DNA of 64,000 nucleotides from Thiotrichaceae bacterium (GTDB lineage Bacteria > Pseudomonadota > Gammaproteobacteria > SZUA-140): the NCBI GenBank assembly GCA_002401765.2, contig NVTY02000019.1, positions 47,845-111,844 on the forward strand. The letters run 5' to 3'. The notes under the pieces were generated by a model. It was not told the DNA's origin. It made no database searches and saw nothing but the letters and a program-made list of their open reading frames with translations. A program made the position numbers and the translations under genes. Of the stretch, positions 4,546 to 63,676 are shown in pieces (within the stretch, counting starts at the first letter, position 1; each line of letters begins with the position of its first letter).

Positions 4546-4690
4546 TTGATGTTTATCCATAAAATAATCTCGCTAAGACACTGGGCACGCAAAGTTTTAA
4601 CTAATGACTTTTGTGTCATATCATTATCTTTTCTTGGCGCACTTTGCATCTTGGCGAGAAAAACACCGATGTTTAATCAGTAATACGAGT

Positions 4691-7259: not shown

Positions 7260-7265
7260 CATTCG

Positions 7266-8195: not shown

Positions 8196-8995
8196 TGCGC
8201 CTCTGGTTTCCTGCTGCCATCTTTGTTTTATGGTTTGTGCTCGCGCTCTTCGGACCGCTGTTTTCACTATCGCCAGACCATATTGAACTCAGTCGAATCC
8301 TGCTGCCGCCCGATGCCAATGAGTGGTTTGGTTATGATGATCTTGGTCGCTCACTGTGGGATCGGCTGATTGTCGGCGCGCAGACATCCTTCATTGTATC
8401 GATGGCAGTGGTCGCTATCTCAATATTGATCGGTGTCACGATTGGCTCATTCAGCGCCTTTGTTGGCGGCTGGTTTGACCACTTGATCGTACGGATCATC
8501 GATATCTTTCTTGCCTTTCCCGGTATTCTGCTGGCGATTGCGTTGGCGGGGTTGATGGGGCCGGGGATTGATAATGTGGTGATTGCGCTTTGCGTTGTCG
8601 GCTGGGTTGGCTTTGCGCGACTCTCGCGTGCACAGGTGATGACGCTAAAAAACCGCGACCATGTACAAGCGGCGATTGCGCTTGGTGCTAGCCGGTCCCG
8701 TATTATTTTTAAACACCTGGTGCCATTGATTGCTGCACCATTGATTGTTGAGGCGACTTTTGCGATCGCCAGTGTTGTGATCGCTGAGGCGGGGCTCTCT
8801 TTTCTTGGCCTCGGTATTCAACCACCGACGCCATCCTGGGGCAGCATGATTCGTGACGGCACACGTTATATGCTGGTCGCACCACACATGGTGCTGGTGC
8901 CGGGCATTGCATTGATGCTGGTGGTGCTGTCGGTTAACCTGCTGGGTGACCGGCTACGTGATTGGCTGGATGTGCGATCACGTGATCGTAAATAA
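8192..8995 (+). CDS. ABC transporter permease (DppC/OppC-like)
   Basis: 267 aa. Overlaps the upstream permease by 4 nt. Carries a binding-protein-dependent transport signature region (AAIALGASRSRIIFKHLVP). Confidence 0.85.
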   Translation: MMRLWFPAAIFVLWFVLALFGPLFSLSPDHIELSRILLPPDANEWFGYDDLGRSLWDRLIVGAQTSFIVSMAVVAISILIGVTIGSFSAFVGGWFDHLIVRIIDIFLAFPGILLAIALAGLMGPGIDNVVIALCVVGWVGFARLSRAQVMTLKNRDHVQAAIALGASRSRIIFKHLVPLIAAPLIVEATFAIASVVIAEAGLSFLGLGIQPPTPSWGSMIRDGTRYMLVAPHMVLVPGIALMLVVLSVNLLGDRLRDWLDVRSRDRK

Positions 8996-32743: not shown

Positions 32744-34573
32744 ATGTTACGTGATGAAATACCGAATGGTAATAAGAAATCGACTCTGATGCGGTTTCTA
32801 ATGGCCTTGGTGGTCTGTTTTATTGTGGCAGGTGGCGTGTTCTTGGTGGACCGGACTAAGAAGATTGAGCGAGACTGGGATCAATATTCTTCCCACCGGA
32901 GTGGTGAATCTGACTTGATATCGCGACTCTATCGCCATATGGGGTATGGTGGATTTATTCATAATTTTAAGAATTTTGTGATTCGACGGGATGAGCCTTT
33001 GTTGGATGCCATTGAGTTAAATTTGAGTGAGATATTGGTTGATCTTGAAGAGTACGAGGTAAAATATATTACTGCTTATGAAGTGGAGTTCACTGCACTG
33101 GATGGTCGTCATCAAGCACTTGAACTGCGTAAACACATAGGGGTTATTCGCGAGGTCATCGAGCAATATATTCTAAAGCTTGCTATTGCAAAGAAGGGGG
33201 TATCTGAGGGTGTTGATGCCGTCATGCTTGATCGACAGCTTAAGGTGGATGATTCGGCTGCGATAGCCGCACTTGATGCCCTATTTAATCATGTAAAAGA
33301 ACATGCAAAAGATGAAGTCACGTCTATTCGTCACAATACAGATAACACCATTGGTTTGATTGTTCTTATGTTGGTGATTCTGGTTTCTACGGTGGCACTA
33401 CTACTGTACATTGTGACGATGGTGAATCGTCAATACTTGGCCTCTAAAATCGTCGCAGAGGAAAATAAAGATGCACTGAATTACATTCTCAATAGCCTAT
33501 CGGATAGTGTCATCATGGTTGATGAAAAGGCTCAATTAATCTGGGCTAACGAGGCCGTGCGAGAGATGTTTGGCTATGAGCCCAGTGAGCTGGTCGGTGA
33601 AAATATTAATTGTCTTTTGCCTCAAGAGTCACGCGATGGTCATTATGATTTGTTTAAACATTATTTAGAGAAGCCCGTTCCCCTTGAGCTGGGTGTTGGT
33701 AAGGTTTTACGAGCCGTCAAAAAAGGAGGTGAGACATTCCCTGTTGAAATATCCCTGAATACAGTGACGTTAAATAGTCACTTAATGGCGATTGCTGCGA
33801 TTCATGATATTACTGAACGTATTATTCATGAAAATAAAATTGAAGCATTGAATCAATCTTTGATTCGCAATAATCGCGAGTTAAATGAAATTAACAAAGA
33901 GCTGGAGTCTTTTAGTTATTCAGTTTCACATGATTTGCGAGGGCCACTGAGGGCCATCGGTGGATTTAGTTCGTTGCTGACTGAGAAGTACAAAAACTTA
34001 CTGGATGAAGATGCTCAGGATTATCTCGCGCGTATTCGTCGTTCAAGTAAGCGGATGGGCGAATTGATTGATAGTTTGTTAAATCTATCTCGCTATGTTC
34101 GCGAAGGAATTGAGCCCGTTGAGTTTAATTTGGATGAGTTGGCACAATCGATTTTTAACAGGATTAATGATTCAACGGATATTCCCTCGGATACCGAGGT
34201 CGAAATTCAGTCTGAAATGAGCGTCATTGCTGACTACCAATTGATGGACGTGGTGATTTATAATCTAATGAGTAATGCATTTAAATTTACCCGGAAAGTT
34301 AAAAATGCCAGGATTAAAGTGGGTATGACGAGCCCCGAAGGGGGACAGGATCTTTATTTTGTCTCAGACAATGGTGAGGGGTTTGATTTGGCTTATGCTG
34401 ACCGCTTGTTTTTGCCATTTCACCGTCTGCATCATGCGGCGGAATACGAAGGCAGTGGTATTGGTCTGGCAACGGTGCAGCGCATTATTAGGCGACATGG
34501 TGGGCGAGTGTGGGCTGACTCGGCCCCTGGCGTTGGGACAACCTTCTATTTCACGCTCTCAAACCCCCACTGA
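32744..34573 (+). CDS. Membrane sensor histidine kinase (periplasmic/extracytoplasmic sensor, PAS, HisKA, HATPase_c)
   Basis: Two TM segments flank a sensor region carrying a GYGGFIHNFKNFVIRR motif. Then a PAS domain, H-box FSYSVSHDLRGPL, N-box NAFKF and G-box GSGIGL. Confidence 0.85.
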   Translation: MLRDEIPNGNKKSTLMRFLMALVVCFIVAGGVFLVDRTKKIERDWDQYSSHRSGESDLISRLYRHMGYGGFIHNFKNFVIRRDEPLLDAIELNLSEILVDLEEYEVKYITAYEVEFTALDGRHQALELRKHIGVIREVIEQYILKLAIAKKGVSEGVDAVMLDRQLKVDDSAAIAALDALFNHVKEHAKDEVTSIRHNTDNTIGLIVLMLVILVSTVALLLYIVTMVNRQYLASKIVAEENKDALNYILNSLSDSVIMVDEKAQLIWANEAVREMFGYEPSELVGENINCLLPQESRDGHYDLFKHYLEKPVPLELGVGKVLRAVKKGGETFPVEISLNTVTLNSHLMAIAAIHDITERIIHENKIEALNQSLIRNNRELNEINKELESFSYSVSHDLRGPLRAIGGFSSLLTEKYKNLLDEDAQDYLARIRRSSKRMGELIDSLLNLSRYVREGIEPVEFNLDELAQSIFNRINDSTDIPSDTEVEIQSEMSVIADYQLMDVVIYNLMSNAFKFTRKVKNARIKVGMTSPEGGQDLYFVSDNGEGFDLAYADRLFLPFHRLHHAAEYEGSGIGLATVQRIIRRHGGRVWADSAPGVGTTFYFTLSNPH

Positions 34574-34602
34574 CAAGGTGATCAGTGAGGGTGCCCCCCG
34601 AG

Positions 34603-35085
34603 TTAATGATGGCTGGCGGGGATATTGAGTGTTAACCAATATTCAACGGTTTTGCTAATAAGCTCTTTGAATTCATCATAATCAACCGGTTTTCGCAGAT
34701 AGCTATTAATATTGGCATTGTAACAGCGTTTAATATCGCTTGGTTCAAGTGAGGTGGTTAAGACCACTAGCGGCATGCTTCTCAGTCGTTCATTTGCTGC
34801 AATCATCTCGATCACTGAAATACCGTCAATAATGGGTAATTTTAGATCAATCAGGGTGAGTGCCGGCTGAGTGTTATTTTCACCTAATAGATAGTCTAAG
34901 CCTTCTTTACCATTTTTTATCGCAAGGAGATGGGGGGGGGTAGTTATCTCTGATAGCGCCAATTTTGTTAATAAAATGTCATCCTCATTATCTTCGATGA
35001 GCAAGATGGACTTTAGTGGCGGATTAATTTTATTGTCGGCTACCATGATACTACCTATGGTGAAGATAAAGAGCTTTTCATTCAC
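34603..35085 (-). CDS. Single-domain response regulator (receiver only)
   Basis: ILLIEDNEDD acidic pocket, LIDLKLP phospho-acceptor Asp, TTS and KP motifs. No output domain. Start is 35085 or ATG 35046. Confidence 0.8.
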   Translation of the reverse strand: MNEKLFIFTIGSIMVADNKINPPLKSILLIEDNEDDILLTKLALSEITTPPHLLAIKNGKEGLDYLLGENNTQPALTLIDLKLPIIDGISVIEMIAANERLRSMPLVVLTTSLEPSDIKRCYNANINSYLRKPVDYDEFKELISKTVEYWLTLNIPASHH

Positions 35086-35149
35086 CTTGAATGATTTTAA
35101 TATTGATCTTAAATATGAAATTCGACATTAATCTTACACGAATTCGGCA

Positions 35150-36265
35150 ATGATTAGCGAAAACACTGAAGCGGGGCGTATCACAGTGAAAATTAACTTA
35201 TTGCTCATCGAAGACTCTAGTGATGACATGGTGCTCATTACTGAGTATTTGAGATCAGATGGTTTTGATGTTAACTGTAAAATGATCTGTAGCGAAATTG
35301 AGTTGAGGGAGGAGCTTGAGTCTACATCCTGGGATGTCATCGTATGCGACCATTTTATGCCTGGATTTTCCTCCTCAAGAGCGCTTGAAGTGCTGTATGA
35401 GGATGAGCCAGAAATTCCTTTGCTGGTTGTTTCCGGGATGATTGATGAAAAATTTGCGGTGGAGTCGCTTAAAATGGGTGCCTTTGATTATGTGATGAAA
35501 GATAACTTGGCTCGTCTGCCGTCAGCGATCAAAAACGCCATGACAGCATTTGACTTGGTGCGTAAACAGAAAGTGGCGAATGAAGAAATTGCATCATCAC
35601 GCCACCTGCTACGCCGTCTGGCCGCTCACTCACAAAACCTGCGTGAAGAAGAACGTGGTCGTTTTGCACGTGATTTACATGATGATCTTGGCAGTGGCAT
35701 GGCGGCGCTGAAGATGGACCTTAAATGGCTGCTCAAACGTTTGGATGGGCAGGACCCGGAGGCGGATGAAAAATTATCAGGCATGACCCGATTGATTGAT
35801 AGTGCTATTGCTTCGGTGCGTCATGTGATCACTGAAATGCGTCCCAGTATTATTGATGATCTGGGTTTGCTGGCTGCTGTGGAGTGGCAACTGGAAGAGT
35901 TTGGCAAACGCCATGGCATTAAGGTAGCGTTAGACCGGAATTGCGATGAAATTGTTTTTAAGAATAAAGACAAAGACAGTGATATTTCCATCTTCAGGAT
36001 ATTCCAAGAAGCGCTCAATAATATTGCTAAACATGCCGAATCCACCTCTGTATTGGTGACGGTTATCGATGAAGACGATGTCTTGATCATCACGATTTCT
36101 GATGATGGGTGTGGTTTTGATGTGAGTGCGCGGACCAATAATGATTCTTTTGGGATTATTAGTATGAAGGAAAGAGTGCTTGTGATGGCTGGCAATATCG
36201 ATGTGATATCGAATCCCGGTGATGGGGTTGTTGTTAAAATCTCTTTGCCAAGAGGGGTATTGTGA
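35150..36265 (+). CDS. Receiver-modulated histidine kinase (N-terminal REC + HisKA_3 + HATPase_c, NarX/LiaS-type core)
   Basis: REC motifs: LLLIEDSSDD and the Asp in VIVCDHFMPG. HisKA_3 H-box RFARDLHDDLG. ATPase blocks NNIAKHA and DDGCGF. Confidence 0.8.
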   Translation: MISENTEAGRITVKINLLLIEDSSDDMVLITEYLRSDGFDVNCKMICSEIELREELESTSWDVIVCDHFMPGFSSSRALEVLYEDEPEIPLLVVSGMIDEKFAVESLKMGAFDYVMKDNLARLPSAIKNAMTAFDLVRKQKVANEEIASSRHLLRRLAAHSQNLREEERGRFARDLHDDLGSGMAALKMDLKWLLKRLDGQDPEADEKLSGMTRLIDSAIASVRHVITEMRPSIIDDLGLLAAVEWQLEEFGKRHGIKVALDRNCDEIVFKNKDKDSDISIFRIFQEALNNIAKHAESTSVLVTVIDEDDVLIITISDDGCGFDVSARTNNDSFGIISMKERVLVMAGNIDVISNPGDGVVVKISLPRGVL

Positions 36266-36900
36266 TGATGTTGAATAAAATTTTGATAGTAGACGACCAT
36301 GCCATTGTACGTGCTGGGCTGAAGCAAATCCTGAATGAAGGGATGCTAGATGTTACCGTTGATGAGGTTGACTGCGGCATGGGTGCCATCGAGCGACTAA
36401 AGCATGATCAATATGACGTGATCTTACTGGACATTTCATTACCGGACAAAAGTGGTATTGATGTTCTAAAGCGTATTCGTGCAGATGAAAATAAAACACC
36501 GGTGTTGATTCTGAGTATTCATGCTTCAGATCAATATGCATTGAGGGCTTTTCGTTGTGGTGCGAATGGTTATATTAATAAAGAAGCGGTCACCGATGAA
36601 TTACTTAAGGCGGTAAAAAAAGTCTCCAGTGGTGGACGTTATATTTCTGAAAACACAGCGGACATGCTGCTTGATATTTTAGAGGGCGATTCATCGGAGG
36701 CGCCGCATTCGAGGCTTTCGGACCGTGAGTATGAAGTACTCCGCCTCATTGCCTCAGGCGAGTCATTAACCCAAATTGGTGAACGCCTCTCACTGAGCGT
36801 GAAAACCATTAGTACTTATCGGACGCGTATCCTGGCAAAAATGAAGATGAAAGATAATAACGAGTTAACACATTACGCAATTAAGATGGACCTACTTTAA
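36262..36900 (+). CDS. NarL/FixJ (LuxR-type HTH) response regulator
   Basis: REC (ILIVDDH, ILLDISLPD) plus a GerE/LuxR HTH (LSDREYEVLRLIASGESLTQIGERLSLSVKTISTYRTRI). Its start overlaps the stop of the upstream kinase. Confidence 0.85.
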   Translation: MMMLNKILIVDDHAIVRAGLKQILNEGMLDVTVDEVDCGMGAIERLKHDQYDVILLDISLPDKSGIDVLKRIRADENKTPVLILSIHASDQYALRAFRCGANGYINKEAVTDELLKAVKKVSSGGRYISENTADMLLDILEGDSSEAPHSRLSDREYEVLRLIASGESLTQIGERLSLSVKTISTYRTRILAKMKMKDNNELTHYAIKMDLL

Positions 36901-38257: not shown

Positions 38258-38635
38258 TTAGCCGAGGCGTCCATCGATTCTAGGTCGGATCAGGTAGGGG
38301 GCATAGACTGCGATAAACAGCGCGAAGGCAGCGCTCCATAATACTTGAGCGCTGCCAATCCATAACGCGTGCCATTCAGGCAGTAGCATTGGCATCATCA
38401 CCCGGATGATGCTGCCTGTGAGCAGCAGCGGTAGACATAACTTCAGCACGGCAGGCGGTTGAGTGACTTTTCGCCCGGTATGACCCAGCGTCACACGCGC
38501 CATCATGCCGATGGTCATCATACCAATACCACCATAGGCAAAGGCGTGCAGTGCGAGCTTTGAATCGAAACCGAGGTAATAAGCGGCGGCGGTGATGGCG
38601 AAGCCGACGATGATCCAGCCGTAAGCATGGAACAA
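38258..38635 (-). pseudogene. nnrS remnant: only the C-terminal ~125 codons of an NnrS-family haem/copper membrane protein
   Basis: Four TM segments with an NnrS C-terminal pattern (ALHAFAYGGIGMMTIGMMARVTLGHTGR). Full-length NnrS is roughly three times longer. Homology stops at about 38640, where base composition changes. There is only a TTG pseudo-start. Confidence 0.6.
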
Positions 38636-38896
38636 AGTTCGCGCCTTGCAATATTGTCTCTCACACTCGTTCTACGCCAAGCTACTGGCTGTCAAGCGAG
38701 TGACCTCAAAGCTTTAGGATTGAAGGAGAATAGATTATGATGGGGCTGATGAGGTACCACAGCTGGGGCACTTCACCGTGGTGTCCTTTAGGAATGCTTG
38801 AGCCGTCAAGATGGGAAACTATCACGCTCGGTTCTGAGGGGGGAATGGGGTCGTAAGGCCCCTGACCTACCCGGTCGCTTAAAAAAGGCAATTTAT

Positions 38897-39355
38897 ATGA
38901 TTGACTGTACATTTGAGCTAAACGATAAACCAATGAGCATTTTCATCTGTGGAGCAACATCATTCCCGGCCTTCTCTGGTCTTGATCAACATGTTAATCG
39001 TTGGCTTTCTGCATGTATTCCAGACCAAGGGCCAATCCCCCCTGGCACTTACTATATATTTGATAGGCAATCTGGTGGTTTATTTGGCCCGCTACGCGAT
39101 ATGTTCACTGGCAAAGACCAATGGTTTGCTCTATACGCTATAGATGGAAAAATAGATGATGAAACATACTGTGATAAAGTCAAGCGTGGTAATTTTCGAC
39201 TACATCCCAAAGGAGATCGCGGTATTAGCAAAGGCTGTATCACAATCGACAGTAAGACCGATTATCAATTTTTAAGAGGAATATTGAAAAACGCTAAACA
39301 AGAAGCAGTGCCCGACTCTCAGTTCCTCGCTTATGGGAAAGTTGTGGTCAGATGA
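38897..39355 (+). CDS. DUF2778 / Tlde1-like protein (L,D-transpeptidase-fold toxin domain)
   Basis: FPAFSG...GPIPPGTYYI...NFRLHPKGDRGISKGCITID matches the DUF2778 pattern (a.SG ... GPiP.G.Y.i ... f.lH ... S.GCI). No signal peptide. ATG at 38897. Confidence 0.6.
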   Translation: MIDCTFELNDKPMSIFICGATSFPAFSGLDQHVNRWLSACIPDQGPIPPGTYYIFDRQSGGLFGPLRDMFTGKDQWFALYAIDGKIDDETYCDKVKRGNFRLHPKGDRGISKGCITIDSKTDYQFLRGILKNAKQEAVPDSQFLAYGKVVVR

Positions 39356-39621
39356 AGAAGATATATCGCTTTAGCTTAACAGGGTTTTGGATGATTTTCG
39401 CCACTGCTTCCTTAGCTCTCTGGTGGTTGGTGAACCCTGATATGTATCCTACTTTTCCAGAACCATTTTGGGAGTGGTTAGGTCATATTTATGCTGTAAC
39501 TTGTTGTGAGGAACAAGCAAATTTAGAATTGTTGGTGCGTCTAAGTTTATCATTTTTTGTCGTTTCTTTATTAACGTTTATTGTTATATTTTTGTGGCGT
39601 ATAAAAAGCGCTAACAAATAG
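39352..39621 (+). CDS. Small two-TM membrane protein; candidate cognate immunity protein
   Basis: The ATG overlaps the upstream TGA (ATGA), which suggests translational coupling. 89 aa with two hydrophobic helices. No family recognised. Confidence 0.4.
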   Translation: MKKIYRFSLTGFWMIFATASLALWWLVNPDMYPTFPEPFWEWLGHIYAVTCCEEQANLELLVRLSLSFFVVSLLTFIVIFLWRIKSANK

Positions 39622-39725
39622 CGCCAGCGGAAATTTATGGCGTGGTTTGGTTTGCGTATTCGCTATCGCTCAATTTTACGCAAACCAAACCATGCTGTAA
39701 ATTTTCGCTGAGCAAAGCGTTAGGC
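39609..39725 (+). mobile_element. Integron attC-type recombination site (~117 bp imperfect palindrome)
   Basis: R'' CGCTAAC (39609-15), L'' GCGCCAG, 36/35 nt imperfectly complementary arms (39621-56 versus 39679-713), L' GCTGAGC, and R' GTTAGGC (39719-25, canonical GTTRRRY). It overlaps the last codons of the upstream ORF, as attC sites often do. Confidence 0.55.
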
Positions 39726-39747
39726 AACAAAATTATCAATAATTTTT

Positions 39748-40098
39748 ATGTTAAAAAATAAATTTATTCGCGTCGTATTTGTAATCGCATTTAGTTTTTC
39801 AAGCAATGTGTATTCTCATTCTGGTGGCACAAATTCGGATGGTTGCCATAATGACAATATTAACGGCGGTTACCATTGTCATCATTCTGACAGTACTGAT
39901 TCAGGTGGTGAAGGAGATATATTAGCGGGGGTATTAATTGCCGGCTTAATATATTGGTATATCGTCAGTAATAAGCCAGAAATATCTAGCATTTCTAAAC
40001 AAGATTCAAACAATGTTAGTAAGTTCAAGCTATCGATTATTCCTAAGTCAAATGAAAGAAACGAAGCTGTTTTACTTAATGTAAGTTATGCGTTTTAA
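39748..40098 (+). CDS. Secreted/anchored YHYH-motif protein
   Basis: Signal peptide, then HSGGTNSDGCHNDNINGGYHCHH (a YHYH-domain-like metal-binding motif), a TM segment and a short tail. Bounded by the two attC-like sites. Confidence 0.5.
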   Translation: MLKNKFIRVVFVIAFSFSSNVYSHSGGTNSDGCHNDNINGGYHCHHSDSTDSGGEGDILAGVLIAGLIYWYIVSNKPEISSISKQDSNNVSKFKLSIIPKSNERNEAVLLNVSYAF

Positions 40099-40100
40099 AT

Positions 40101-40197
40101 GCCCAACAAAGGCAGTAGCGCCGGACAAGCCTCACGCCGCTGCGGCCTGCCGCTCACTGCAGACGTGAGGCTCTCCAAAATGCCCCATCGCTGTTGC
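40101..40197 (+). repeat. Second, degenerate attC-like palindromic element
   Basis: Starts with the inverse-core GCCCAAC three nt after the stop codon. Contains the stem AGCCTCACG ... CGTGAGGCT and ends in GTTGCAA, which violates GTTRRRY at one position. No similarity to the first site. Confidence 0.3.
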
Positions 40198-40375
40198 AAT
40201 AAACAGTTGAAAAATAGTTTGATATTTTCTTAAAAAAGCGTTTGATGGGCATTGAGTTAAAACATAAAGAGAGGAGTATGTTTCAACATTGAAATGCTGA
40301 TTTAATTAAGCGCTGCCCCTGAGTGCAGAAACACCTAGAGGCAGCTAACCACAACCGATACAAGAGATATCAATT

Positions 40376-40612
40376 ATGGCTAAACGCAATGATAAGCGAG
40401 AGACCCGCTCGACTAAAGAAAAATCGATCAAAAAAGCACAAAAACATCCTTACTACCGCTAACTCAAGGTTCGGTCGAGCCTATATTACTACCATTTCGG
40501 CGATTTTCAGCCCCGAGGCCGCTATCGTCCAGTCATCCCTGTTCCCTGGATCAATATCAAAGGTTATTGGCTCAATGAGGCTGGCTTCACCATTTCCTGC
40601 ATCAGCGCATAA
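40376..40612 (+). pseudogene. SymE-family (type I toxin, AbrB-fold) remnant with an in-frame stop and a truncated C-terminus
   Basis: The frame reads MAKRNDKRETRSTKEKSIKKAQKHPYYR*LKVRSSLYYYHFGDFQPRGRYRPVIPVPWINIKGYWLNEAGFTISCISA*. The core IP...I.G.WL.EAGF matches SymE. The TAA at 40460-62 interrupts it, and the usual C-terminal beta-strands are missing. Confidence 0.4.
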
Positions 40613-40789
40613 ATAAACATGCAACTCAATTGAATAGCCTTCAGATAAGCAATATCACTTACGTGAACTACGCGCTGGGAGCGAGGTGAAAAGAGCATGG
40701 TTTGAAGCACTCACAGACAATGATCTCAATCCCATCCATGAAGCCATCTAGGCTATACTGACCCTAGTCAATATATAGATGGACAACCG

Positions 40790-42118
40790 ATGAAACAGAT
40801 CGACACGCTTATTCATGCCCGCTGGGTTATTCCAGTCGAGCCCGCTAATGTCGTGCTTGAAGACCATAGTCTGGCGATGGATGATGGTCGTATTGTTGCT
40901 ATCCTGCCCAGTGTTGAGGCACGGCAGCAATACCGAGGAAAGAATGAACTGACACTTGTCGATCAGGCGTTGATCCCGGGGTTGGTCAACACCCATACTC
41001 ATGCCGCGATGTCACTTTTTCGCGGGCTGGCGGATGATATGCCGTTGATGGAGTGGCTTAACGATCACATTTGGCCGGCGGAGGGGAAGTGGGCCAATGG
41101 TGATTTTGTCCATGATGGCACTCGTCTTGCGATTGCAGAAATGGTTCGTGGTGGCACCACCTGCTTTAGTGATATGTATTTTTTCCCCGGTGAGGTTGCC
41201 CATGTCGCCAGCCAGAGTGGCATGCGTGCTGCGGTTGGTTTGATCATGATCGATTTTCCCACTGCATGGGCGAGTGGCCCCGACGAGTACCTTTCTAAGG
41301 GGCTTAAGGTGCATGACGATTACCGCCATGATCCATTAATTTCGGTCACCTTTGCCCCTCACGCACCCTATACGGTCTCTGATGAACCACTCAAAAGATT
41401 ACAGATGTATGCGGAGGAACTTGATGTGCCGCTGCATATTCATCTGCATGAGACGGCGCATGAGGTCGACGATGCCGTGCAGCAGAACGGTCAACGCCCG
41501 CTTGAGCGGCTCGAAGCCCTTGGCCTACTAACGCCACACCTGGTCGCGGTACATATGACGCAGCTAACGGATGGTGAGATTGAATCAATCGCCACCGCTG
41601 GGGCGCATGTGGTGCACTGTCCAGAATCAAACCTTAAGCTCGCCAGTGGCTTCTGTCCGCTCCATAAACTGCACCAGGCAGGTGTCAATGTGGCGCTGGG
41701 CACGGATGGCGCCGCCAGCAACAATGACCTCGATATGTTTGGTGAGATGCGTACCGCCGCGCTACTTGCCAAGGCGGTGGGGCAGGATGCCAGTGCCATT
41801 CCTGCTGCGACTGCCCTGCAAATGGCGACGCTTAACGGCGCGCGCGCACTGGGGTTGGATAAAGAGATTGGTTCGCTCATCGTCGGTAAGGCTGCCGATA
41901 TAGTGGCGATTGACCTCAGTGAACTGGAGTCGCAACCACTTTACCATCCCATTTCTCAGATCGTTTACGCCACCAATCGTGATAAAGTAAGCCATGTCTG
42001 GGTCAATGGGCGCCACTTGTTAAAGGCGCGCGCTCTGACCACGCTGGATGAAAACCACATCCTCGAAAAAACACGCCAGTGGCGTCAAAAAATCGCTGAG
42101 AGCGATCAGCAGCAATAA
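40790..42118 (+). CDS. mtaD: 5-methylthioadenosine/S-adenosylhomocysteine deaminase (TRZ/ATZ amidohydrolase)
   Basis: Amidohydrolase metal motifs NTHTHAAM, HLHE, HCPESN and GTDGAASNN. Sits upstream of ubiG, as in Pseudomonas. Confidence 0.8.
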   Translation: MKQIDTLIHARWVIPVEPANVVLEDHSLAMDDGRIVAILPSVEARQQYRGKNELTLVDQALIPGLVNTHTHAAMSLFRGLADDMPLMEWLNDHIWPAEGKWANGDFVHDGTRLAIAEMVRGGTTCFSDMYFFPGEVAHVASQSGMRAAVGLIMIDFPTAWASGPDEYLSKGLKVHDDYRHDPLISVTFAPHAPYTVSDEPLKRLQMYAEELDVPLHIHLHETAHEVDDAVQQNGQRPLERLEALGLLTPHLVAVHMTQLTDGEIESIATAGAHVVHCPESNLKLASGFCPLHKLHQAGVNVALGTDGAASNNDLDMFGEMRTAALLAKAVGQDASAIPAATALQMATLNGARALGLDKEIGSLIVGKAADIVAIDLSELESQPLYHPISQIVYATNRDKVSHVWVNGRHLLKARALTTLDENHILEKTRQWRQKIAESDQQQ

Positions 42119-42151
42119 TAACCTGTTACCCTGAATTTAAAGAGAAAGAAG

Positions 42152-42889
42152 ATGCCGCAAGCAGACAATCGCGATAACAACCTAGACAGCAATGTAGACC
42201 GCAACGAGGTCGCTAAATTTGAGGCGATGGCAAGCCGCTGGTGGGATGTGAATGGCGAATGTAAACCGCTGCATGCGATCAATCCGTTGCGCTTGAATTA
42301 TATCGATGAAAAAGTCGCGGGAATTGCGGCTAAAAAAGTGATCGATGTCGGTTGTGGTGGCGGCATTCTCAGTGAGAGCATGGTGCAACGTGGCGCGAGC
42401 GTGAGCGGCATCGATATGTCGGCGCCGTCGATTGAAGTCGCAAAGCTGCACCTCTATGAATCAAACCTTGACGTTGATTACCAGCGATCCACCGCGGAGG
42501 CCTTTGCGGAACTGCATCCACACAGCTTTGACGTGGTCACCTGTATGGAATTGCTTGAACATGTGCCTGACCCTGCCTCCGTCATCCGTGCCTGTGCCAA
42601 GCTGGTTAAGCCTGGCGGGCATCTGTTTTTTTCAACCATCAACCGTAATCCAAAGGCCTATCTGTTTGCGATTGTAGGTGCTGAGTATCTGTTAAAGATG
42701 CTGCCGAAAGGGACGCATGACTTTGCTAAATTTATTCGTCCGTCAGAACTCAGTGCATGGGCCCGTGAAGCGGGGTTGTCGACACATGATATCAGCGGTC
42801 TTAGCTACAATCCACTCAGTAAACATTACGCTATCGGTAATGACATCGATGTTAATTACATGATGCACACGCAGCAAACTGCGCTTTGA
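42152..42889 (+). CDS. ubiG: Ubiquinone biosynthesis O-methyltransferase
   Basis: [14 protein letters not shown] start, SAM motif [13 protein letters not shown], and the [11 protein letters not shown] block. Confidence 0.9.
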
Positions 42890-42896
42890 GCCTCGT

Positions 42897-43571
42897 GTGA
42901 CATTTAAACACATCCTGTTCGACCTTGATGGTACATTGGCCGATACCGCGCAAGACCTTGTCTTTACCCTCAATACATTGCTGCAAAACGAGGGTCATCA
43001 ACCGTTGCCATTTGAGCAGCTGCGCCCAATGGTTACCCATGGGGCCAATGCACTGATCGAACTAGGGTTTGGCGAGCATGTGCCGGTAGCAAAATTTAAA
43101 CAGCTGACTGCTGAATTTCTCGAGATCTATCAAAACCACCTTAGCGATAAGACTGTCCTTTTCCCCGGCATGGCAGAACTGTTAGTTACCATAGAAGGGC
43201 AGGGGCAATTGTGGGGTGTCGTTACCAATAAACCGTCATGGCTGACTAATCCTTTAATGGAGGAACTAGGGTTAGCGCAGCGCGCTGCCTGTATTGTTAG
43301 CGGTGATACGGTCGAACATAAAAAACCACATCCACAACCGATGTTTCACGCCTGCGATGTGATGGGGGTCAGTGCTTCAGAGTGTATCTATGTGGGCGAT
43401 GCTCGACGTGATATCGAGGCGGGCCAGCGTGCGGGCATGAAAACCATCGCAGCGCTCTTCGGCTACATCAATGACGACGATGACCCCGCTACGTGGGGTG
43501 CCGATGGTTCGGTCGAACACGCCAGTGAAATCATCGCATGGCAAAAACGTTTTAATCAGGGTTCGCAATAA
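42897..43571 (+). CDS. HAD-superfamily phosphatase (phosphoglycolate phosphatase / MurNAc-6-P phosphatase MupP-like)
   Basis: DLDGTLADT motif I, VTNK motif II, and K...GDARRD motif III/IV. GTG start. Position after ubiG matches the Pseudomonas gph/mupP arrangement. Confidence 0.8.
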   Translation: MTFKHILFDLDGTLADTAQDLVFTLNTLLQNEGHQPLPFEQLRPMVTHGANALIELGFGEHVPVAKFKQLTAEFLEIYQNHLSDKTVLFPGMAELLVTIEGQGQLWGVVTNKPSWLTNPLMEELGLAQRAACIVSGDTVEHKKPHPQPMFHACDVMGVSASECIYVGDARRDIEAGQRAGMKTIAALFGYINDDDDPATWGADGSVEHASEIIAWQKRFNQGSQ

Positions 43572-43575
43572 AGAA

Positions 43576-44847
43576 ATGACCACCACCAGCTATATTATCA
43601 TTGCCATCACCACCGCTATTTCACTGCTAATGGGTGCACTACTAGCCCATCTGCGCGCACAAAAACAGATTTCCGAACTACAGCGTGAGAACAGTACGTT
43701 GACGACGACGCTAGCAATGCAACAAAGCAATGCGGCAGAAAAGATCGAGGCGCTTGAAAAAAATAGGGCGCAACTTAGCGATACCTTTAGCGCGCTATCA
43801 AGTGAAGCACTGAAAAGTAATAATGAGCAATTTCTTAAACTGGCACAGGAAAACCTCAAGCAGTTTAATGTACAGGCGCAGGGTGATCTGGCTAAAAAAG
43901 AGCAGTCGATAGAGCATTTGGTCAAACCGATTAAAGAGTTATTGGCGAAGACTGAAAAACAGATCCGAGAGATCGAACATGAACGTAAAGAGTCTTACGG
44001 TTCGATTACTAAGCATCTAGAAAGTATGGCGCAGACTCAGCAGATGTTGTATGGCGAAACTCGCAATCTGGTGAAGTCACTGCGTCGCCCTGAAGTTCGC
44101 GGGCAATGGGGGGAGATGACGCTCAAACGTTTAGTGGAACTTGCCGGTATGGTTGAATATTGCGATTTCTTTGAACAGGAATATACCGAAACAGACGACG
44201 GTAGCATTCGCCCCGATATGATTGTGCGTATGCCAGGGCGGCGTGAGATTGTGATTGATGTGAAGACTCCGCTTGATGCCTACCTCAATGCAATCGAAGC
44301 TGATAGTGATGAGCTGCGTGAACAACATCTACTTCATCATGCCAAAAAAGTACGTGAGCGTATCCGCGAGCTTGCCAGCAAGGCCTACTGGGGACAGTTC
44401 AAACAGAGCCCAGATTTCGTGGTGCTATTTATTCCTGGTGACCATTTTCTCAGTGCGGCACTCGAAAAAGATAGCGCATTGCTAGAAGATGCACTGAAAC
44501 AGAAGGTGATTCTCGCTACACCGACAAGTCTGGTTGCACTACTGCGTGCTGTTGCCTTTGGTTGGAATCAGCAGGCGATCACCGACAATGCCGAAAAGAT
44601 TCGAGACCTCGGTGAGGACCTCTATAAGCGACTCTGTACCTTTACCGGCCACATGAGCAAAGTCGGAAAAGGGCTTAACAGCAGCCTGGAGCACTACAAC
44701 AAAGCCGTGGGTTCATTTGAACGGCAGGTACTGAGTGGGGCGCGTAAATTTACCGAAATGGGCATCAGTAGCCATAAAGAACCTGAGGCGCTAGAACCCA
44801 TTGAAAAATTGGCGCGCACGCTGGAAGAACCGATTAATAAGCAATAA
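43576..44847 (+). CDS. rmuC: DNA recombination protein RmuC
   Basis: N-terminal TM, a long coiled coil, then the RmuC nuclease-like core (RGQWGEMTLKRLVE, RPDMIVRMPG, VIDVKTPL, FVVLFIPGD). Confidence 0.85.
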   Translation: MTTTSYIIIAITTAISLLMGALLAHLRAQKQISELQRENSTLTTTLAMQQSNAAEKIEALEKNRAQLSDTFSALSSEALKSNNEQFLKLAQENLKQFNVQAQGDLAKKEQSIEHLVKPIKELLAKTEKQIREIEHERKESYGSITKHLESMAQTQQMLYGETRNLVKSLRRPEVRGQWGEMTLKRLVELAGMVEYCDFFEQEYTETDDGSIRPDMIVRMPGRREIVIDVKTPLDAYLNAIEADSDELREQHLLHHAKKVRERIRELASKAYWGQFKQSPDFVVLFIPGDHFLSAALEKDSALLEDALKQKVILATPTSLVALLRAVAFGWNQQAITDNAEKIRDLGEDLYKRLCTFTGHMSKVGKGLNSSLEHYNKAVGSFERQVLSGARKFTEMGISSHKEPEALEPIEKLARTLEEPINKQ

Positions 44848-44856
44848 GATGACTTA

Positions 44857-45043
44857 CTAGGAGACTGTCGGGCTTAGGTGATCGGAGCGAGCGGAAACCA
44901 TTTTGTAGCCAAAGGGCACCGCAAAATCCATTTATTGGATCGTTTGAGGCGAATATTGGGCATATTCAACGAAAAGGATCGAAGAAATGGGTCGGAATGG
45001 TTTTTCCGCAGTAGATTCATCCTAAGCTCGACAGCCTCCTAGG
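44857..45043. mobile_element. MITE-like element, family A, copy 1
   Basis: Terminal inverted repeats CTAGGAGACTGTCGGGCTTAGG (44857-78) and CCTAAGCTCGACAGCCTCCTAGG (45021-43). The interior is largely self-complementary and about 80-90% identical by eye to the copy at 55253-55463. Begins 10 nt after the rmuC stop. Confidence 0.6.
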
Positions 45044-45128
45044 AGATCGCTCTCCTGTTGCCGGCTAAAGGCCGGGAGTGGACGATGGCGGTTGTTCAAC
45101 TACTCATTGCCTTCCAATTGAATGGGCT

Positions 45129-45506
45129 TCAGTAACCATCATAGGGCGGCATCGGGACTTCTAAGCCTATAAGGCTGGACTTCAGGCATACTGAAAAATC
45201 TGTTTTCTTATCTAAGTGAAATGCTTTAATGGTGCCGTCACTATTGATTTCAAATACTGCGGAAAATGGCTGTTTTTCTGATTTTTTGTGCTTATCTGAG
45301 CAATTATCAAAAATGCTTGGTTGGTGTTCAAAAAATGAACCATTCAATTGCGTCGCATAAAAAGTGCCAAATTCAGAGCTCATTTCTGTCTTTGCCTGCG
45401 CATAGAGTCTATCGAAGTCATTTGATGCACTTGCGTTAGAAATGGTAATACTGGCAATCAATAACGTCGCATAAAATGTGGCTAGCTTTGGCCTCGTAAT
45501 TTTCAT
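45129..45506 (-). CDS. Hypothetical small secreted protein
   Basis: 125 aa with a clear signal peptide (LLIASITISNASA). No recognisable family. Confidence 0.5.
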   Translation of the reverse strand: MKITRPKLATFYATLLIASITISNASASNDFDRLYAQAKTEMSSEFGTFYATQLNGSFFEHQPSIFDNCSDKHKKSEKQPFSAVFEINSDGTIKAFHLDKKTDFSVCLKSSLIGLEVPMPPYDGY

Positions 45507-45642
45507 TGTATAACCTCTTTGACGTTTTTTTAGTTAGCTCACCCTGATTCATAGCCTGCTAATGGCGCTGAGTATACCTTGCCACTATTTCTAAAGTGAC
45601 TCAATACCTATATCTGTGGTGATCAAGTTGTCACGATAAACA

Positions 45643-46062
45643 TTATCGCATCATGACGATGATGACTAATATACCGAGTAAAATAATATATGGGTATGCG
45701 ACAGTAGGGCGCAGGGCGTTACGCATATATTCTTTGATCAATCCAATGGAACCATGTCGGGTTGCCTCCCAGTCTGAATAGAATTGCATGGCCGAATTTT
45801 GGTCGTCGCGTTTGATCAGTTGCTCAAGCGCTAATAGCCGCTCGGTGGTGCGTGCTTGCACGGTACGCCAGATACCTTCTTGCAGCCACAGTACTAATAT
45901 GAATAGTATCGCGATCCATAGGTGGATTGTCAGTCCAATAGTGATAAGGCTGCTGAGAATAGCGACAAGCTTTATCAGCAGGCTATAGCGGTCATAGCGC
46001 TCGTAATCCTGATGTAGGGTTTGCCATTCTTGATTTAACGGGTTTAATGTCGATGTGTCCAT
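45643..46062 (-). CDS. Hypothetical membrane protein
   Basis: 139 aa with three predicted TM helices. No recognisable family. Confidence 0.5.
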   Translation of the reverse strand: MDTSTLNPLNQEWQTLHQDYERYDRYSLLIKLVAILSSLITIGLTIHLWIAILFILVLWLQEGIWRTVQARTTERLLALEQLIKRDDQNSAMQFYSDWEATRHGSIGLIKEYMRNALRPTVAYPYIILLGILVIIVMMR

Positions 46063-46089
46063 GCTTACTTTCCTGCTCGTGTAAAGGTC

Positions 46090-46995
46090 TCAAATTGTTT
46101 CAAGGTGATAGCTAACACTGAGCTGGTGTTTGCCACCTGCTGGGATGGCAATGAGATGGTTAGCCGCATTGGCACTTTCAACGCAGACCATATTCAGGTA
46201 GCCATCTCTTCCCATGTCGCCCATCTGGGTTGATTTTTCAATCCACGGATTCCACACCACGGTTGATTCACTGCCTGTTTTTCGAATGTGAATCCGGCGC
46301 AAAAGGCCGGGGTCGTGAATAGCGCAGTCGGCTTCGGTGTCGATGTAAATACGATCAACCTCGTTTGCGAAGGTAATATCACCTACTTGCTGCCTCGCCA
46401 GCATACCATCTACTTTATCGAGGTAACGACAGCCATTCAGACCATTAATACGGATGTTTCTCACATCGCTGACGGACAAGTAGGTGTGTAATGCTTCGCT
46501 GATGGTCATTGCACTCTGGCCTTTATTAAACGTTGTCAGCGTTATTGTGAGTGTTTTACCGATTGTGATTTGGCATTCTACAGAGGTCGGCTGTGGCCAG
46601 AACTTTGTTTCTATATTGGAGGAATCAAGCTGAAGCGTGATCTGTGTCTCCTCGCTGGAGAATCGGGTCGTGTTGATTACCTGCCACGGCATGGTACGTG
46701 CGAAGCCGTGAGCGGGGAAGTTGGCCTGGGTTTTATGGGCGCCAAACCATGGCCAGCAGATGGGTACACCGCCGCGGATAGACTTACCCGGTGCCTGTGT
46801 TGCATCGGGTGAGAGCCAGATAACGGGTCTTTCGCCCGTTGGCGTCCATTCCATCAGGTGCGCGCCCTGCAAGGCAATGGAAGCACTTGCATGGTTGTTA
46901 TTGATATGGGCAATCACTTGCCCGCTGTGAGTGGTATCAAAAGTGAGCTGGTTCTTGATTCCCCACTGCTTGTTTAAGTTTGTAATGGCTGTCAT
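46090..46995 (-). CDS. D-hexose-6-phosphate mutarotase (aldose 1-epimerase family, YeaD-like)
   Basis: IRGGVPICWPWFG, HGFAR, and the typical ALHTYL and VVWNPW blocks of the YeaD family. Confidence 0.8.
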   Translation of the reverse strand: MTAITNLNKQWGIKNQLTFDTTHSGQVIAHINNNHASASIALQGAHLMEWTPTGERPVIWLSPDATQAPGKSIRGGVPICWPWFGAHKTQANFPAHGFARTMPWQVINTTRFSSEETQITLQLDSSNIETKFWPQPTSVECQITIGKTLTITLTTFNKGQSAMTISEALHTYLSVSDVRNIRINGLNGCRYLDKVDGMLARQQVGDITFANEVDRIYIDTEADCAIHDPGLLRRIHIRKTGSESTVVWNPWIEKSTQMGDMGRDGYLNMVCVESANAANHLIAIPAGGKHQLSVSYHLETI

Positions 46996-63112: not shown

Positions 63113-63346
63113 TTAATTGAGCTGTTGTTCGTCGTCGCTCTCTTTGTCAGGCTTTATATTCGCAGCAAAGAGGCCTTTGGGGCCCTCTGAGAGCTCAAAT
63201 TCAACCTTTTGGCCGCCTTTGAGTGTTTTGTAGCCGTCGATTGAGATGGCGGAGAAGTGGGCGAAGATATCTTCGCCGCCTTCGTCGGGTGAGATGAAAC
63301 CAAATCCTTTGGTGTTGCTAAACCACTTAACAAGTCCACTAGGCAT
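63113..63346 (-). CDS. cspD: Cold-shock-domain protein, CspD-like
   Basis: [15 protein letters not shown] and IFAHFSAI, with a short acidic C-terminal tail. Divergent from clpS, as in E. coli. ATG 63346 lies behind a GGGAG SD. Confidence 0.75.
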
Positions 63347-63676
63347 AACTATACTCCCTTCCATATTCGAGCATCACTATCTTGTTAGGCATGAACCGGG
63401 GTCGTTTCCGCTGACCGCGTAGTAAAACAATAGTCCAATAAGCAAAATAGTCAAGTACTTCGGGGGTGTCAATTGTGCGTGTGTGGAAGATGAGTGGGGT
63501 GGCTGGATTATTGCTATCATTTTGATGGGGTTGAATTTTTTATTGTATGCCTATATGTCTGTTGTTGGGTGTGATATTTTATGCGCTCAGTAATAACTAA
63601 TTCCCATGCAAAACAAGCTGTTATATATTGTTGTGCGAGTGAGATTTTTGTCGAAATAAGGTATAATAGGGTCGGT

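Follow-up and report, generated by a model that had tools for sequence, protein, structure and literature searches.

Between a broken nnrS gene and mtaD, the 64-kb stretch of DNA analysed here (hereafter the window), which comes from an uncultured gammaproteobacterium, carries an AT-rich islet of short plus-strand ORFs. What kind of element is this islet, and how did it come to abut a truncated host gene? A first-pass annotation had described it as a horizontally acquired cassette cluster without an integrase. This description is supported by the homologous cassettes that we found in real integrons and by the matches of an attC covariance model (R3), and the islet is probably a fossil integron cassette array, that is, an attC cluster lacking an integrase (CALIN-like). 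The features identified in and beside it are as follows.

38258-38635, minus strand: nnrS 3' fragment, a pseudogene remnant (last ~117 codons, about one third, of a ~390-codon gene)
38636-38797, no strand: junction DNA from the nnrS breakpoint to intron domain V
38798-38875, plus strand: group II intron 3' stub, domains V-VI, 5'-truncated (Rfam RF00029, 43.7 bits versus gathering 40)
38876-38896, plus strand: 5' leader of cassette 1, CGCTTAAAAAAGGCAATTTAT, remnant of the preceding attC R' junction
38897-39355, plus strand: 152-aa protein with a Tlde1/DUF2778 domain (Pfam Tlde1_dom); putative L,D-carboxy/transpeptidase-like toxin
39352-39621, plus strand: 89-aa two-transmembrane (2-TM) partner, putative immunity protein; its start overlaps the Tlde1 stop (ATGA)
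39608-39725, plus strand: attC1, intact attC of cassette 1 (R3, 28.1 bits, E 8.8e-5)
39748-40098, plus strand: YHYH-domain protein, 116 aa, cassette 2 (NCBIfam NF033223 YHYH_alt, 34.9 bits versus cutoff 30)
40101-40171, plus strand: attC2, decayed attC of cassette 2 (R3, 17.1 bits, E 0.044; R' core GTT changed to GTG)
40309-40381, minus strand: gene for a symR-like antisense RNA, extending over the start codon of symE (Rfam RF01809)
40376-40612, plus strand: symE-like pseudogene (28 codons, in-frame TAA at 40460-40462, then a C-terminally truncated SymE core)
40613-40742, no strand: spacer between the symE remnant and the conserved mtaD block

Base composition and gene content

GC content falls to 0.32-0.40 in the islet, the mean of the window being 0.482, and both the lowest 300-nt value (0.323, at 39521) and the lowest 1-kb value (0.366, at 39101; 1-kb mean 0.483, sd 0.033) of the window lie here. 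The GC3 values of the Tlde1-like gene (0.34), its partner (0.36) and the YHYH gene (0.27) also depart from those of fpr, the nnrS fragment and mtaD (0.53-0.64; 0.50-0.64 over the flanking genes). The sharp drop that had been read by eye from single 60-nt lines was thereby confirmed, as were the line counts themselves (15 G+C at 39541 and 22 at 39481/39781; 36 of 60 in the mtaD line at 41701, where about 58% had been estimated). Taken as a 2154-nt block, the islet (0.418) is tied with the region at 33.1-35.3 kb (0.416), which is equally AT-rich, and to call it the only clearly non-core segment of the window was therefore too strong. The short plus-strand ORFs listed at first reading (Tlde1-like, small membrane ORF, YHYH and SymE-like remnant) are real. 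A promoter and terminator scan did not rise above shuffles, and promoter-like sites showed no enrichment.

The first gene starts at the ATG at 38897, and its product matches Tlde1_dom well above the cutoff (PF10908, 114.6 bits versus 30.1, E 4.7e-33). It has about 790 homologues, almost all of exactly 152 aa, and shows a dN/dS of 0.03-0.13. H103 and C114 are invariant in 18 members of the family, which share the motif RLH-x7-S-x-G-C with a His-Cys spacing of 10 residues. The full Tlde1 motif, HXX14-17-(S/T)HGCh (H121, H129 and C131 in Tlde1a; PMC9638812), is absent from the family, in which the second His is missing; the position before G-C is occupied by K, Q, E, R, L or D and in no case by H. 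A search of PDB sequences with the family profile gave no matches, Tlde1a included. The top four PDB matches of the AF2 model (pLDDT 73.5) in Foldseek are all LD-carboxy/transpeptidases (7o21, 6xj7, 5e51 and 6xj6; probability 0.96-0.98, but E 6e-3 to 1e-2 and TM 0.38-0.44). The protein probably acts in the periplasm, as a toxin of the peptidoglycan L,D-carboxy/transpeptidase type.

Of 19 related loci examined, 16 have the 89-aa ORF at the corresponding position, the remaining three being contig ends or disrupted copies, and the ORF is still intact in L106 and L107, where the Tlde1-like gene is truncated. At 50% identity its family falls into 104 clusters, which with few exceptions are 83-104 aa long, and its dN/dS is 0.17-0.33. 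No match to the ORF was found in Pfam, NCBIfam or PADLOC, and the PADLOC defence models gave no matches. These comparisons indicate that the Tlde1-like gene and the 89-aa ORF are a conserved two-gene unit under purifying selection. The co-translated 2-TM protein probably neutralizes the putative toxin at the inner membrane, with the two acting as effector and immunity protein or as an addiction pair.

The unit resembles the Tlde1/Tldi1 T6SS pair of Salmonella (PMC9638812; bioRxiv 10.1101/2020.02.18.954545) in having a Tlde1_dom protein of one small domain without a signal peptide, conserved His and Cys residues, a cognate gene downstream and, tentatively, a predicted LD-transpeptidase-like fold. 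Unlike that pair, its motif S-x-G-C lacks the second His of (S/T)HGC, its partner is a membrane protein of ~89 aa with two transmembrane segments whereas Tldi1 is Sec-exported and periplasmic, and it is integron cassette cargo. No T6SS Pfam families are present among the genes within +/-10 kb. Pairs of DUF2778 and small 2-TM genes are also found outside integrons: on Erwinia billingiae pEB170, one is flanked by Tn3 and IS3 transposases, and that of L091 is located among IS elements.

Apart from its signal peptide, the YHYH protein has one hydrophobic helix. Beyond its gene, the symR-like RNA matches RF01809 over the full length of the model and is correctly antisense to the ATG at 40376, with a score (47 bits, E 3.4e-7 to 1e-6) below the gathering threshold of 61. 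The Pfam SymE_toxin match (29.1-30.2 bits, cutoff 29) covers only profile positions 12-37 of 54 and is interrupted by the TAA, and no in-frame ATG, GTG or TTG is present in the sequence beyond this stop. The arrangement is similar to the SymE/SymR type I toxin-antitoxin system of E. coli in its SymE_toxin domain and in the antisense RNA over the start codon; unlike that system, symE here is interrupted by an in-frame stop and retains no C-terminal half of the domain, and symR stays below gathering. Judged from these lesions, the symE/symR copy of the islet is dead.

attC sites and homologous cassettes in integrons

We regarded as attC an imperfect palindrome of ~57-141 nt that lies just after a cassette ORF and ends in the cores R'' (RYYYAAC) and R' (GTTRRRY). 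attC1 has this structure: R'' (CGCTAAC, 39609-39615, 6/7 to the consensus) and R' (GTTAGGC, 39719-39725, with the crossover at G39719|T39720) delimit 117 nt with 34-nt arms that are 88% complementary and a DNA fold of z = -6.6, and the partner stop codon lies 4 nt beyond R''. attC2 retains R'' (GCCCAAC), but its R' reads GTGAGGC. The sequence TAAATGCCCAACAAA at attC2 is homologous to the stop codon and R'' of L112, TAAATGCCTAACAAA, and the region around it folds weakly (z = -2.2). An outer inverted repeat (40098-40113/40238-40253) was also considered as attC2 and was rejected, as it is weakly structured (z = -2.2) and the model favours 40101-40171.

The R3 model, which is home-made and roughly calibrated, was trained on 25 sites, all from other loci. 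Its covariation score is 0.411 versus 0.153 in shuffles (0/500), with compensatory changes in all 10 L-stem pairs. The best two matches in the 128 kb searched are attC1 and attC2, both on the cassette strand; attC2 is borderline at its E-value, and the third match has E 0.27. Because homologous Tlde1-cassette attCs (L116, L108/L109) are included in the training set, the attC1 score is not fully independent. A regex-plus-folding scanner, which yielded many false positives, served only for choosing training sites. The model R1 (54 columns, arms only) missed attC1, as it could not span 117 nt. The N-padded model R2 ranked attC1 at the top, yet with 12.8 bits and E 0.9; it recovered 13 non-training attCs in other arrays, and R3 could therefore be built. 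Matches of miRNA families of Rfam at 39625-39710 are hairpin artefacts of the attC stem. R3 detected no attC after the symE remnant. The earlier statement that attC-like palindromes separate the units is thus correct for attC1, which is clean; attC2 is decayed and the third site is lacking.

Relatives of both cassettes reside in integrons. In L095, a copy of the Tlde1 pair with 76% amino acid identity is the last cassette of a plus-strand array that is divergent to a neighbouring integron integrase gene (TIGR02249, 478 bits versus cutoff 265), and the attC of this cassette is 75% identical to positions 39600-39720 over 125 nt (E 4e-10). In six other loci, the R' core GTTAG is located 25-45 nt before the Tlde1 ATG and canonical attCs follow, and L101 contains an array of 91-nt attCs. 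A YHYH homologue (68%) lies between canonical attC sites in L112, and another (47%) in an array adjoining an integrase N-terminal fragment in L113. The ORFs and attC thus form a unit in an integrase-linked array, as cassettes do (L095; L112 and L113 likewise for YHYH). The literature that we searched contained no paper connecting the Tlde1-like/partner family with integrons.

Remnant of a group II intron beside cassette 1

The stub at 38798-38875, overlooked at first reading, is the sole gathering-level Rfam match in the 64 kb. It is oriented as the cassettes and abuts the leader of cassette 1 exactly at the cassette boundary. The leader is homologous to GTTAGCGCTTAAAAAA, which follows the R' core GTTAG in L095, and to GCGCTTAAAAAAAGGAAATTTAT of L096, where a matching arrangement is found (RF00029, 43.6 bits). 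Domains D1-D4 and reverse-transcriptase similarity are both absent, and the segment is an intron remnant, not an intron. Its domain V triad, read from the sequence, is AGC and not CGC, a difference that separates intron classes.

IIC-attC introns occupy the bottom strand of attC and are oriented against the cassette genes (PMC3001079); unlike these, the stub lies on the top strand and has the AGC domain V. In the CALIN of Halorhodospira, same-orientation IIB introns or DV-DVI-only stubs have been described (PMC7923331). Like published integron introns, the stub is located at an attC/cassette junction; it is similar to H.ha.F1/F2 of that array in being 5'-truncated and reduced to DV-DVI, and to UHB.I2 (PMC7923331) in its cassette orientation, GU end and AT-rich 3' exon. 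Elsewhere, in L118-L120 and L096, bottom-strand IIC-type introns are inserted in the Tlde1-like cassette family, L118 carrying a full intron on the minus strand, and the family has thus been targeted repeatedly by group II introns of two kinds.

Breakpoints and chromosomal context

The ORF at 38258-38635 matches only positions 255-371 of the 371 in the NnrS Pfam model (E 2.9e-31), and similarity to longer NnrS proteins begins at '..LFHAYGW', about 38626-38640, in agreement with the end of homology at ~38640 noted previously. The in-frame codons upstream of the fragment have no NnrS similarity; the fragment is 60% identical to the C-terminal ORF of nnrS in L115. The left junction of the islet lies within the truncated group II intron, not at attC or attI. 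The junction DNA has no counterpart in any locus compared, no Rfam D1-D4 match and no convincing reverse-transcriptase similarity. A weak RVT_N tag of the public annotation (38646-38717, 23-aa ORF) was not reproduced, yielding only a 7-residue match at chance level.

On the right, nucleotide similarity to relatives sets in at 40743 (L001), 40781 (L015) and 40778 (L115). Three relatives have mtnA-ompA upstream of mtaD, the islet being absent from that place, and in the single relative showing nnrS, the gene is located downstream of rmuC and contains an in-frame TAG ~9 codons from the breakpoint of the window. Given mtnA-ompA before mtaD and nnrS beyond rmuC in relatives, the junctions appear to mark a larger rearrangement and not a simple insertion. 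It is therefore too simple to propose that nnrS lost its 5' part through an insertion or later deletion: comparison with relatives shows the neighbourhood as a whole to be rearranged, and the nnrS of the one relative already carries the TAG. A simple inversion involving the islet, the mtaD block and the nnrS 5' part does not fit either, as the window nowhere contains an N-terminal part of nnrS, ompA or mtnA. The best MtaD identity of GTDB relatives is 88-91%, their synteny is limited to 40743-44831, and fpr and nnrS are absent from all 80 GTDB-relative loci. We compared about 20 contigs of the same species, each encoding the identical fpr or YHYH protein. All are collinear, with 99.97-100% identity and without an alternative cassette context, and therefore give no sign of cassette turnover. 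An empty site with an intact nnrS, which had been expected in close relatives, was present neither in these contigs nor in the GTDB relatives.

The islet edges contain no tRNA or transposase, and the public gene calls within +/-10 kb include no integrase, as the first-pass annotation had stated for the edges. A tblastn search of the whole window with the L095 IntI gave a best E of 0.013 (50 residues, at 29.3 kb), and neither an intI pseudogene nor an attI was seen in the 23-38 kb that flank the islet on each side.

Origin of the islet

Because the window contains no integrase, we regard the array as a CALIN-like remnant. On this reading, the islet consists of three former cassettes, head to tail on the plus strand: the Tlde1-like toxin gene with its 2-TM partner and attC1, the YHYH gene with the decayed attC2, and the remnant of a symE/symR type I toxin-antitoxin system whose attC is gone. 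An integron integrase would first have captured these cassettes by attC x attI recombination, here or in another genome, which would account for their foreign composition. A non-IIC group II intron formerly resided in the attC upstream of cassette 1, with only domains V-VI left today. A later rearrangement or deletion may then have severed the array from integrase and attI, with one breakpoint in the intron and another in nnrS, by then probably a dispensable gene, thereby setting the remnant beside mtaD; rearrangement or integrase loss is one published route to CALINs (PMC4889954). The present array would be immobile by itself. attC1 could still recombine with an integrase supplied in trans; attC2, with its change from GTT to GTG, and cassette 3 are presumably dead.

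The array shares with CALINs (Cury et al. 2016, PMC4889954) two same-strand attC-model matches 376 nt apart, small promoterless-looking ORFs in one orientation, cassettes unrelated to resistance genes and the absence of intI within 23 kb or more (4-10 kb being the criterion). It differs from them in its decayed attC2, in its cassette 3 without attC and in one of its ends, where a truncated intron is joined to a host gene that is likewise truncated. Because attC2 is decayed and a third attC is lacking, strict IntegronFinder settings might report a single site (SALIN).

Alternatively, an integron elsewhere in the genome may have inserted the cassettes directly at an attG in or beside nnrS, so that no resident integron decayed. 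Integron integrases insert cassettes at many non-att sites, creating isolated cassettes and CALINs (bioRxiv 10.1101/2022.09.11.507474; PMC4889954), and the interrupted nnrS and the absence of intI pseudogene and attI nearby would fit such an event. However, the left junction is not G|TT, a 5'-truncated intron and ~160 nt of other DNA abut nnrS, and the right end has no attC. Moreover, relatives show that the rearrangement extends beyond nnrS to the whole neighbourhood, and extra deletion steps would be required regardless. We consider this alternative improbable.

Still less credible is an ordinary islet of orphan toxin-immunity or toxin-antitoxin genes, in which the palindromes are terminators or REP-like and resemble attC by coincidence. 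The DUF2778/2-TM pairs of pEB170 and the IS-rich L091 agree with this idea, as does the non-significant score of the first crude attC model. In contrast, the cores of attC1 are rightly placed, the site is homologous to an integrase-linked attC and is detected by R3 on the cassette strand only, and the cassette boundaries coincide exactly with the G|TT junctions of homologues. An assembly or binning artefact, in which unrelated contigs were joined at low-complexity or hairpin sequence, can practically be dismissed: several short assemblies end at 38666, 38800-38899, 39636-39749 and 40220-40391, but nine or more independent contigs, which differ in sample and assembler, cover all or part of fpr-nnrS'-islet-mtaD at the identity given above, with an alternative join in none.

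Implications

The guess that an undescribed module would sit here did not hold as regards its kind, since CALINs, toxin-antitoxin cassettes and intron stubs in CALINs have all been published (PMC4889954, PMC7923331). A cassette-array remnant such as the fossil array proposed here is a common, already described sort of mobile-DNA fossil; current concepts remain unchanged, and cases are added. The islet is a clean example of cassette-array decay in an uncultured gammaproteobacterium, in which the integrase has been lost, one attC is intact, a second mutated and a third gone, and the breakpoints are marked by an intron stub and a broken host gene.

A bolder reading, which we hold to be rather doubtful, is that Tlde1-like genes with their ~90-aa 2-TM partners represent undescribed and very widespread integron-borne toxin-immunity or addiction cassettes, and that two group II intron lineages home preferentially to their attC junctions (bottom-strand introns of the classic IIC type at R'', and introns of a non-IIC lineage in the top strand at R' in cassette orientation); intron and cassette may travel, or even arise, together. 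The analysis flags a large unannotated two-gene cassette family, with some 790 relatives of the toxin and, for the partner, about 100 clusters at 50% identity, and the Tlde1-like/partner pair supplies a toxin-immunity candidate that is open to testing.

Structure and base composition of the islet

The AT-rich islet at 38636-40789, between a truncated nnrS and mtaD, has the following structure (window positions).

38258-38635 (-): nnrS fragment, covering Pfam NnrS model positions 255-371 of 371 only
38636-38797: junction DNA of ~160 nt, which matches nothing
38798-38875 (+): group II intron domains V-VI (DV-DVI; RF00029, 43.7 bits versus a gathering threshold of 40)
38876-38896 (+): leader of 21 nt
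38897-39355 (+): Tlde1_dom protein, 152 aa (E 4.7e-33)
39352-39621 (+): partner ORF, 89 aa, with two hydrophobic helices and an ATGA overlap with the Tlde1-like gene
39608-39725 (+): attC1, imperfect palindrome of 117 nt with end cores CGCTAAC and GTTAGGC (DNA fold z = -6.6)
39748-40098 (+): YHYH-domain protein, 116 aa (NF033223)
40101-40171 (+): attC2, a second, weaker palindromic element
40309-40381 (-): symR-like antisense RNA (47 bits, below the gathering threshold of 61)
40376-40612 (+): symE frame with an in-frame TAA, covering SymE_toxin profile positions 12-37 of 54 only
40613-40742: spacer of ~130 nt; similarity to relatives begins at 40743-40781

Promoter-like sites are not enriched in the islet. 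The ends of short same-species contigs cluster at 38666, 38800-38899, 39636-39749 and 40220-40391 (intron stub, attC1 hairpin and sym region), suggesting that short-read assemblies are interrupted there by repeats or hairpins; no same-species contig was seen to continue divergently from these points.

The sharp drop in base composition described in the first-pass annotation was confirmed. The GC content is 0.32-0.40 at 39.1-40.3 kb versus a window mean of 0.482, the lowest-GC 300-nt and 1-kb windows of all 64 kb are inside the islet, and GC3 is 0.27-0.36 in the three intact islet genes versus 0.50-0.64 in fpr, the nnrS fragment, mtaD, ubiG and gph. A recount also agrees with the earlier hand counts of G+C. 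However, the islet is not the sole AT-rich segment, as had been claimed, because at the scale of 2154-nt blocks it ties (0.418) with a two-component cluster at 33-35 kb (0.416). This region (32744-36900; GC 0.416 at the 2-kb scale, GC3 0.41-0.45) encodes a PAS histidine kinase, a response regulator, a HisKA_3 kinase and a GerE regulator. Since the GerE regulator shows 74% DNA identity to the copy in L115, one of the three nearest relatives, the cluster can be regarded as at least partly ancestral. Past rmuC, 44848-46090 could form another small accessory patch; its minus-strand ORFs (45129-45506, GC3 0.38, and 45643-46062) had no match in Pfam, NCBIfam and PADLOC searches, and the attC-model search yielded no significant match there.

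attC sites and homologous cassettes

Covariance models were trained on attC sites found at other loci; one restricted to the arms was too short to span a 117-nt site and missed attC1. An N-padded model (R2) ranked 39611-39723 first, without significance (12.8 bits, E 0.9), and recovered 13 attCs of other arrays that were not in its training set, each on the cassette strand. The final model (R3) was rebuilt from 25 real attC sites, including those recovered by the N-padded model. Its two helices are backed by covariation (0.411 versus 0.153 in shuffles, 0/500), with compensatory changes in 10 of the 10 L-stem pairs. When the whole window was searched on both strands with filters off, R3, whose training set includes attCs of homologous Tlde1 cassettes, gave 39608-39725(+) as the best match (28.1 bits) and 40101-40171(+) as the second (17.1 bits), with rough E-values of 8.8e-5 and 0.044, respectively, and 0.27 for the next match. 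Both palindromes proposed to separate the units are present, but the second is weaker and its GTT core is mutated; attC2 is probably inactive, because GTGAGGC stands in place of the required GTTRRRY. No integron integrase is detectable within the 64-kb window; the first-pass annotation had noted none at either edge of the islet. By the published definition (PMC4889954), the locus therefore qualifies as a CALIN (a cluster of attC sites lacking an integron integrase), the second site being borderline. A weak match on both strands at 63343-63390 (GCCTAACAAG...GTTATGC; 13.9 bits, E 0.27), overlapping the start of a small ORF (63113-63364, -), is probably due to chance because it has no internal stem.

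Of the 790 homologues of the Tlde1-like protein, nearly all are exactly 152 aa long. Locus L095 contains a 76%-identical copy as the final gene of a plus-strand array divergent from a bona fide integron integrase (TIGR02249, 478 bits versus a cutoff of 265). Downstream of this copy come the same small ORF for a membrane protein and an attC matching window positions 39600-39720 (75% over 125 nt, E 4e-10). The R' core GTTAG lies 25-45 nt 5' of the Tlde1 ATG in L091, L095, L098, L099, L101 and L108/L109, several of which have canonical attCs on the 3' side; in L101, the attCs of the array are 91 nt long. The nearest YHYH homologue (68%, L112) sits between two canonical attCs, and its stop codon plus R'' core (TAAATGCCTAACAAA) is homologous to TAAATGCCCAACAAA in the window. 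A 47% YHYH homologue (L113) is found in an array adjoining an integrase N-terminal fragment. These integrase-linked cassettes and the attC model matches make the first-pass view of a horizontally acquired cassette cluster, here a CALIN, well supported.

Rearrangement at the islet edges

The nnrS truncation ending at ~38640 is real, and in-frame codons upstream of this point show no NnrS similarity. About 20 contigs, which come from different samples and were made with different assemblers, encode an fpr or YHYH protein identical to that of the window; they are collinear at 99.97-100% identity, and neither an empty site with intact nnrS, which the first-pass annotation had proposed to seek, nor an alternative cassette context occurs among these same-population contigs. 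Between the window and the nearest other genomes (MtaD 88-91%), only 40743-44831 is shared, and synteny with all three relatives (L001, L015 and L115) stops right after rmuC (44831).

In these relatives, mtnA-ompA precedes mtaD. L115 (JGI Ga0316207_10000250), the only one showing nnrS, carries it at 7158-8339, on the strand of rmuC, downstream of that gene and after a ccdAB toxin-antitoxin pair, with an in-frame TAG ~9 codons upstream of the window's nnrS breakpoint. Hence, a rearrangement specific to this lineage has its breakpoints at both islet edges, and decay of nnrS had probably begun in the clade beforehand. The split nnrS of L115 seems to represent independent decay within the clade. 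The earlier proposal that an insertion or deletion removed the 5' part of nnrS is an oversimplification, given the rearrangement breakpoints at both edges and the TAG already present in L115. A single inversion does not account for the gene order, because the 5' part of nnrS, ompA and mtnA are absent from the window. The mechanism by which the islet arrived can be reconstructed only partly.

Several NnrS C-terminal-only ORFs of ~125-128 aa from other organisms (alignment A1: P0147, P0148, P0151, P0155, P0175 and P0180), some on contigs 92 kb to 1.4 Mb long, begin within 1-3 residues of the start of the window fragment. They could reflect repeated truncation at the same position or an independent 4-helix NnrS-C gene.

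The putative toxin-partner pair

The Tlde1-like family has invariant His103 and Cys114 in 'RLH-x7-S-x-G-C' and, unlike the Tlde1a motif (PMC9638812), no second His. Its profile matched no PDB sequence, and the only meaningful fold matches of the AF2 model (pLDDT 73.5) were LD-carboxy/transpeptidases, weakly so. Of the 19 related loci examined, 16 have the partner, and the others are contig ends or disrupted copies. The partner sequence diverges more rapidly than that of the toxin (mean column identity of 38% versus 75%) and retains two helices and the loop 'PEPFW...EE.ADLE'; its family forms ~104 clusters at 50% identity, without annotation. Both genes are under purifying selection. We infer a putative pair in which the Tlde1-like protein would be a peptidoglycan toxin acting in the periplasm and the partner a membrane-anchored immunity protein.

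In L106 (~4340-5064) and L107 (~4236-4957), the Tlde1 gene is without its first ~81 codons and the partner is intact (75% identical to that of the window), as would be expected for an orphan immunity gene. The conjugative plasmid pEB170 of Erwinia billingiae (NC_014305.1, 8894-9615; L130) encodes a 47%-identical DUF2778 protein and a similar, overlapping 79-aa two-helix partner, flanked by Tn3 and IS3 transposases; no T6SS genes lie within 4 kb of the pair. Non-integron routes also mobilize this two-gene module.

Group II introns in the cassette family

The RF00029 match at 38798-38875 is the only gathering-level Rfam match in the window. The last base of this intron stub adjoins CGCTTAAAAAA, which in L095 comes after the R' core (GTTAGCGCTTAAAAAA). 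In L096, the closest cassette copy (82% aa), an RF00029 match (43.6 bits) ends just 5' of GCGCTTAAAAAAA, and the intron sequence is strongly diverged. The downstream attC of L095 is broken after 'GGCGT' by 'GTGTGCC...', which, at the contig edge, resembles the 5' terminus of a group II intron. The islet stub and similar introns are in cassette orientation and have a domain V with an AGC triad, whereas classic IIC-attC introns are inserted into the bottom strand and run against the cassette orientation (PMC3001079). Same-orientation introns after attC, as well as 5'-truncated stubs consisting of DV-DVI only in a CALIN, have been described (PMC7923331), and the islet stub, also 5'-truncated to DV-DVI and in cassette orientation, resembles these.

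L118-L120 contain a complete minus-strand intron directly 3' of the partner stop (RF02001, 134 bits; RT and GIIM; CGC triad). In L118 (884-2760) and likewise in L119 and L120, it comprises D1-D4, a 446-aa RT/maturase and DV-DVI, inserted exactly between the partner stop and attC: a textbook IIC-attC arrangement in an environmental Tlde1 cassette. L096 also carries a classic minus-strand intron; its cassette (region 1-1022) has group II intron ends on both sides, with a plus-strand DV-DVI (AGC triad) upstream and the 3' end of a minus-strand IIC-like intron abutting the partner stop codon.

In the literature searched, we found no paper linking DUF2778 with integrons. The most interesting loose end is this unannotated toxin-partner cassette family, which has been repeatedly targeted by two kinds of group II intron.
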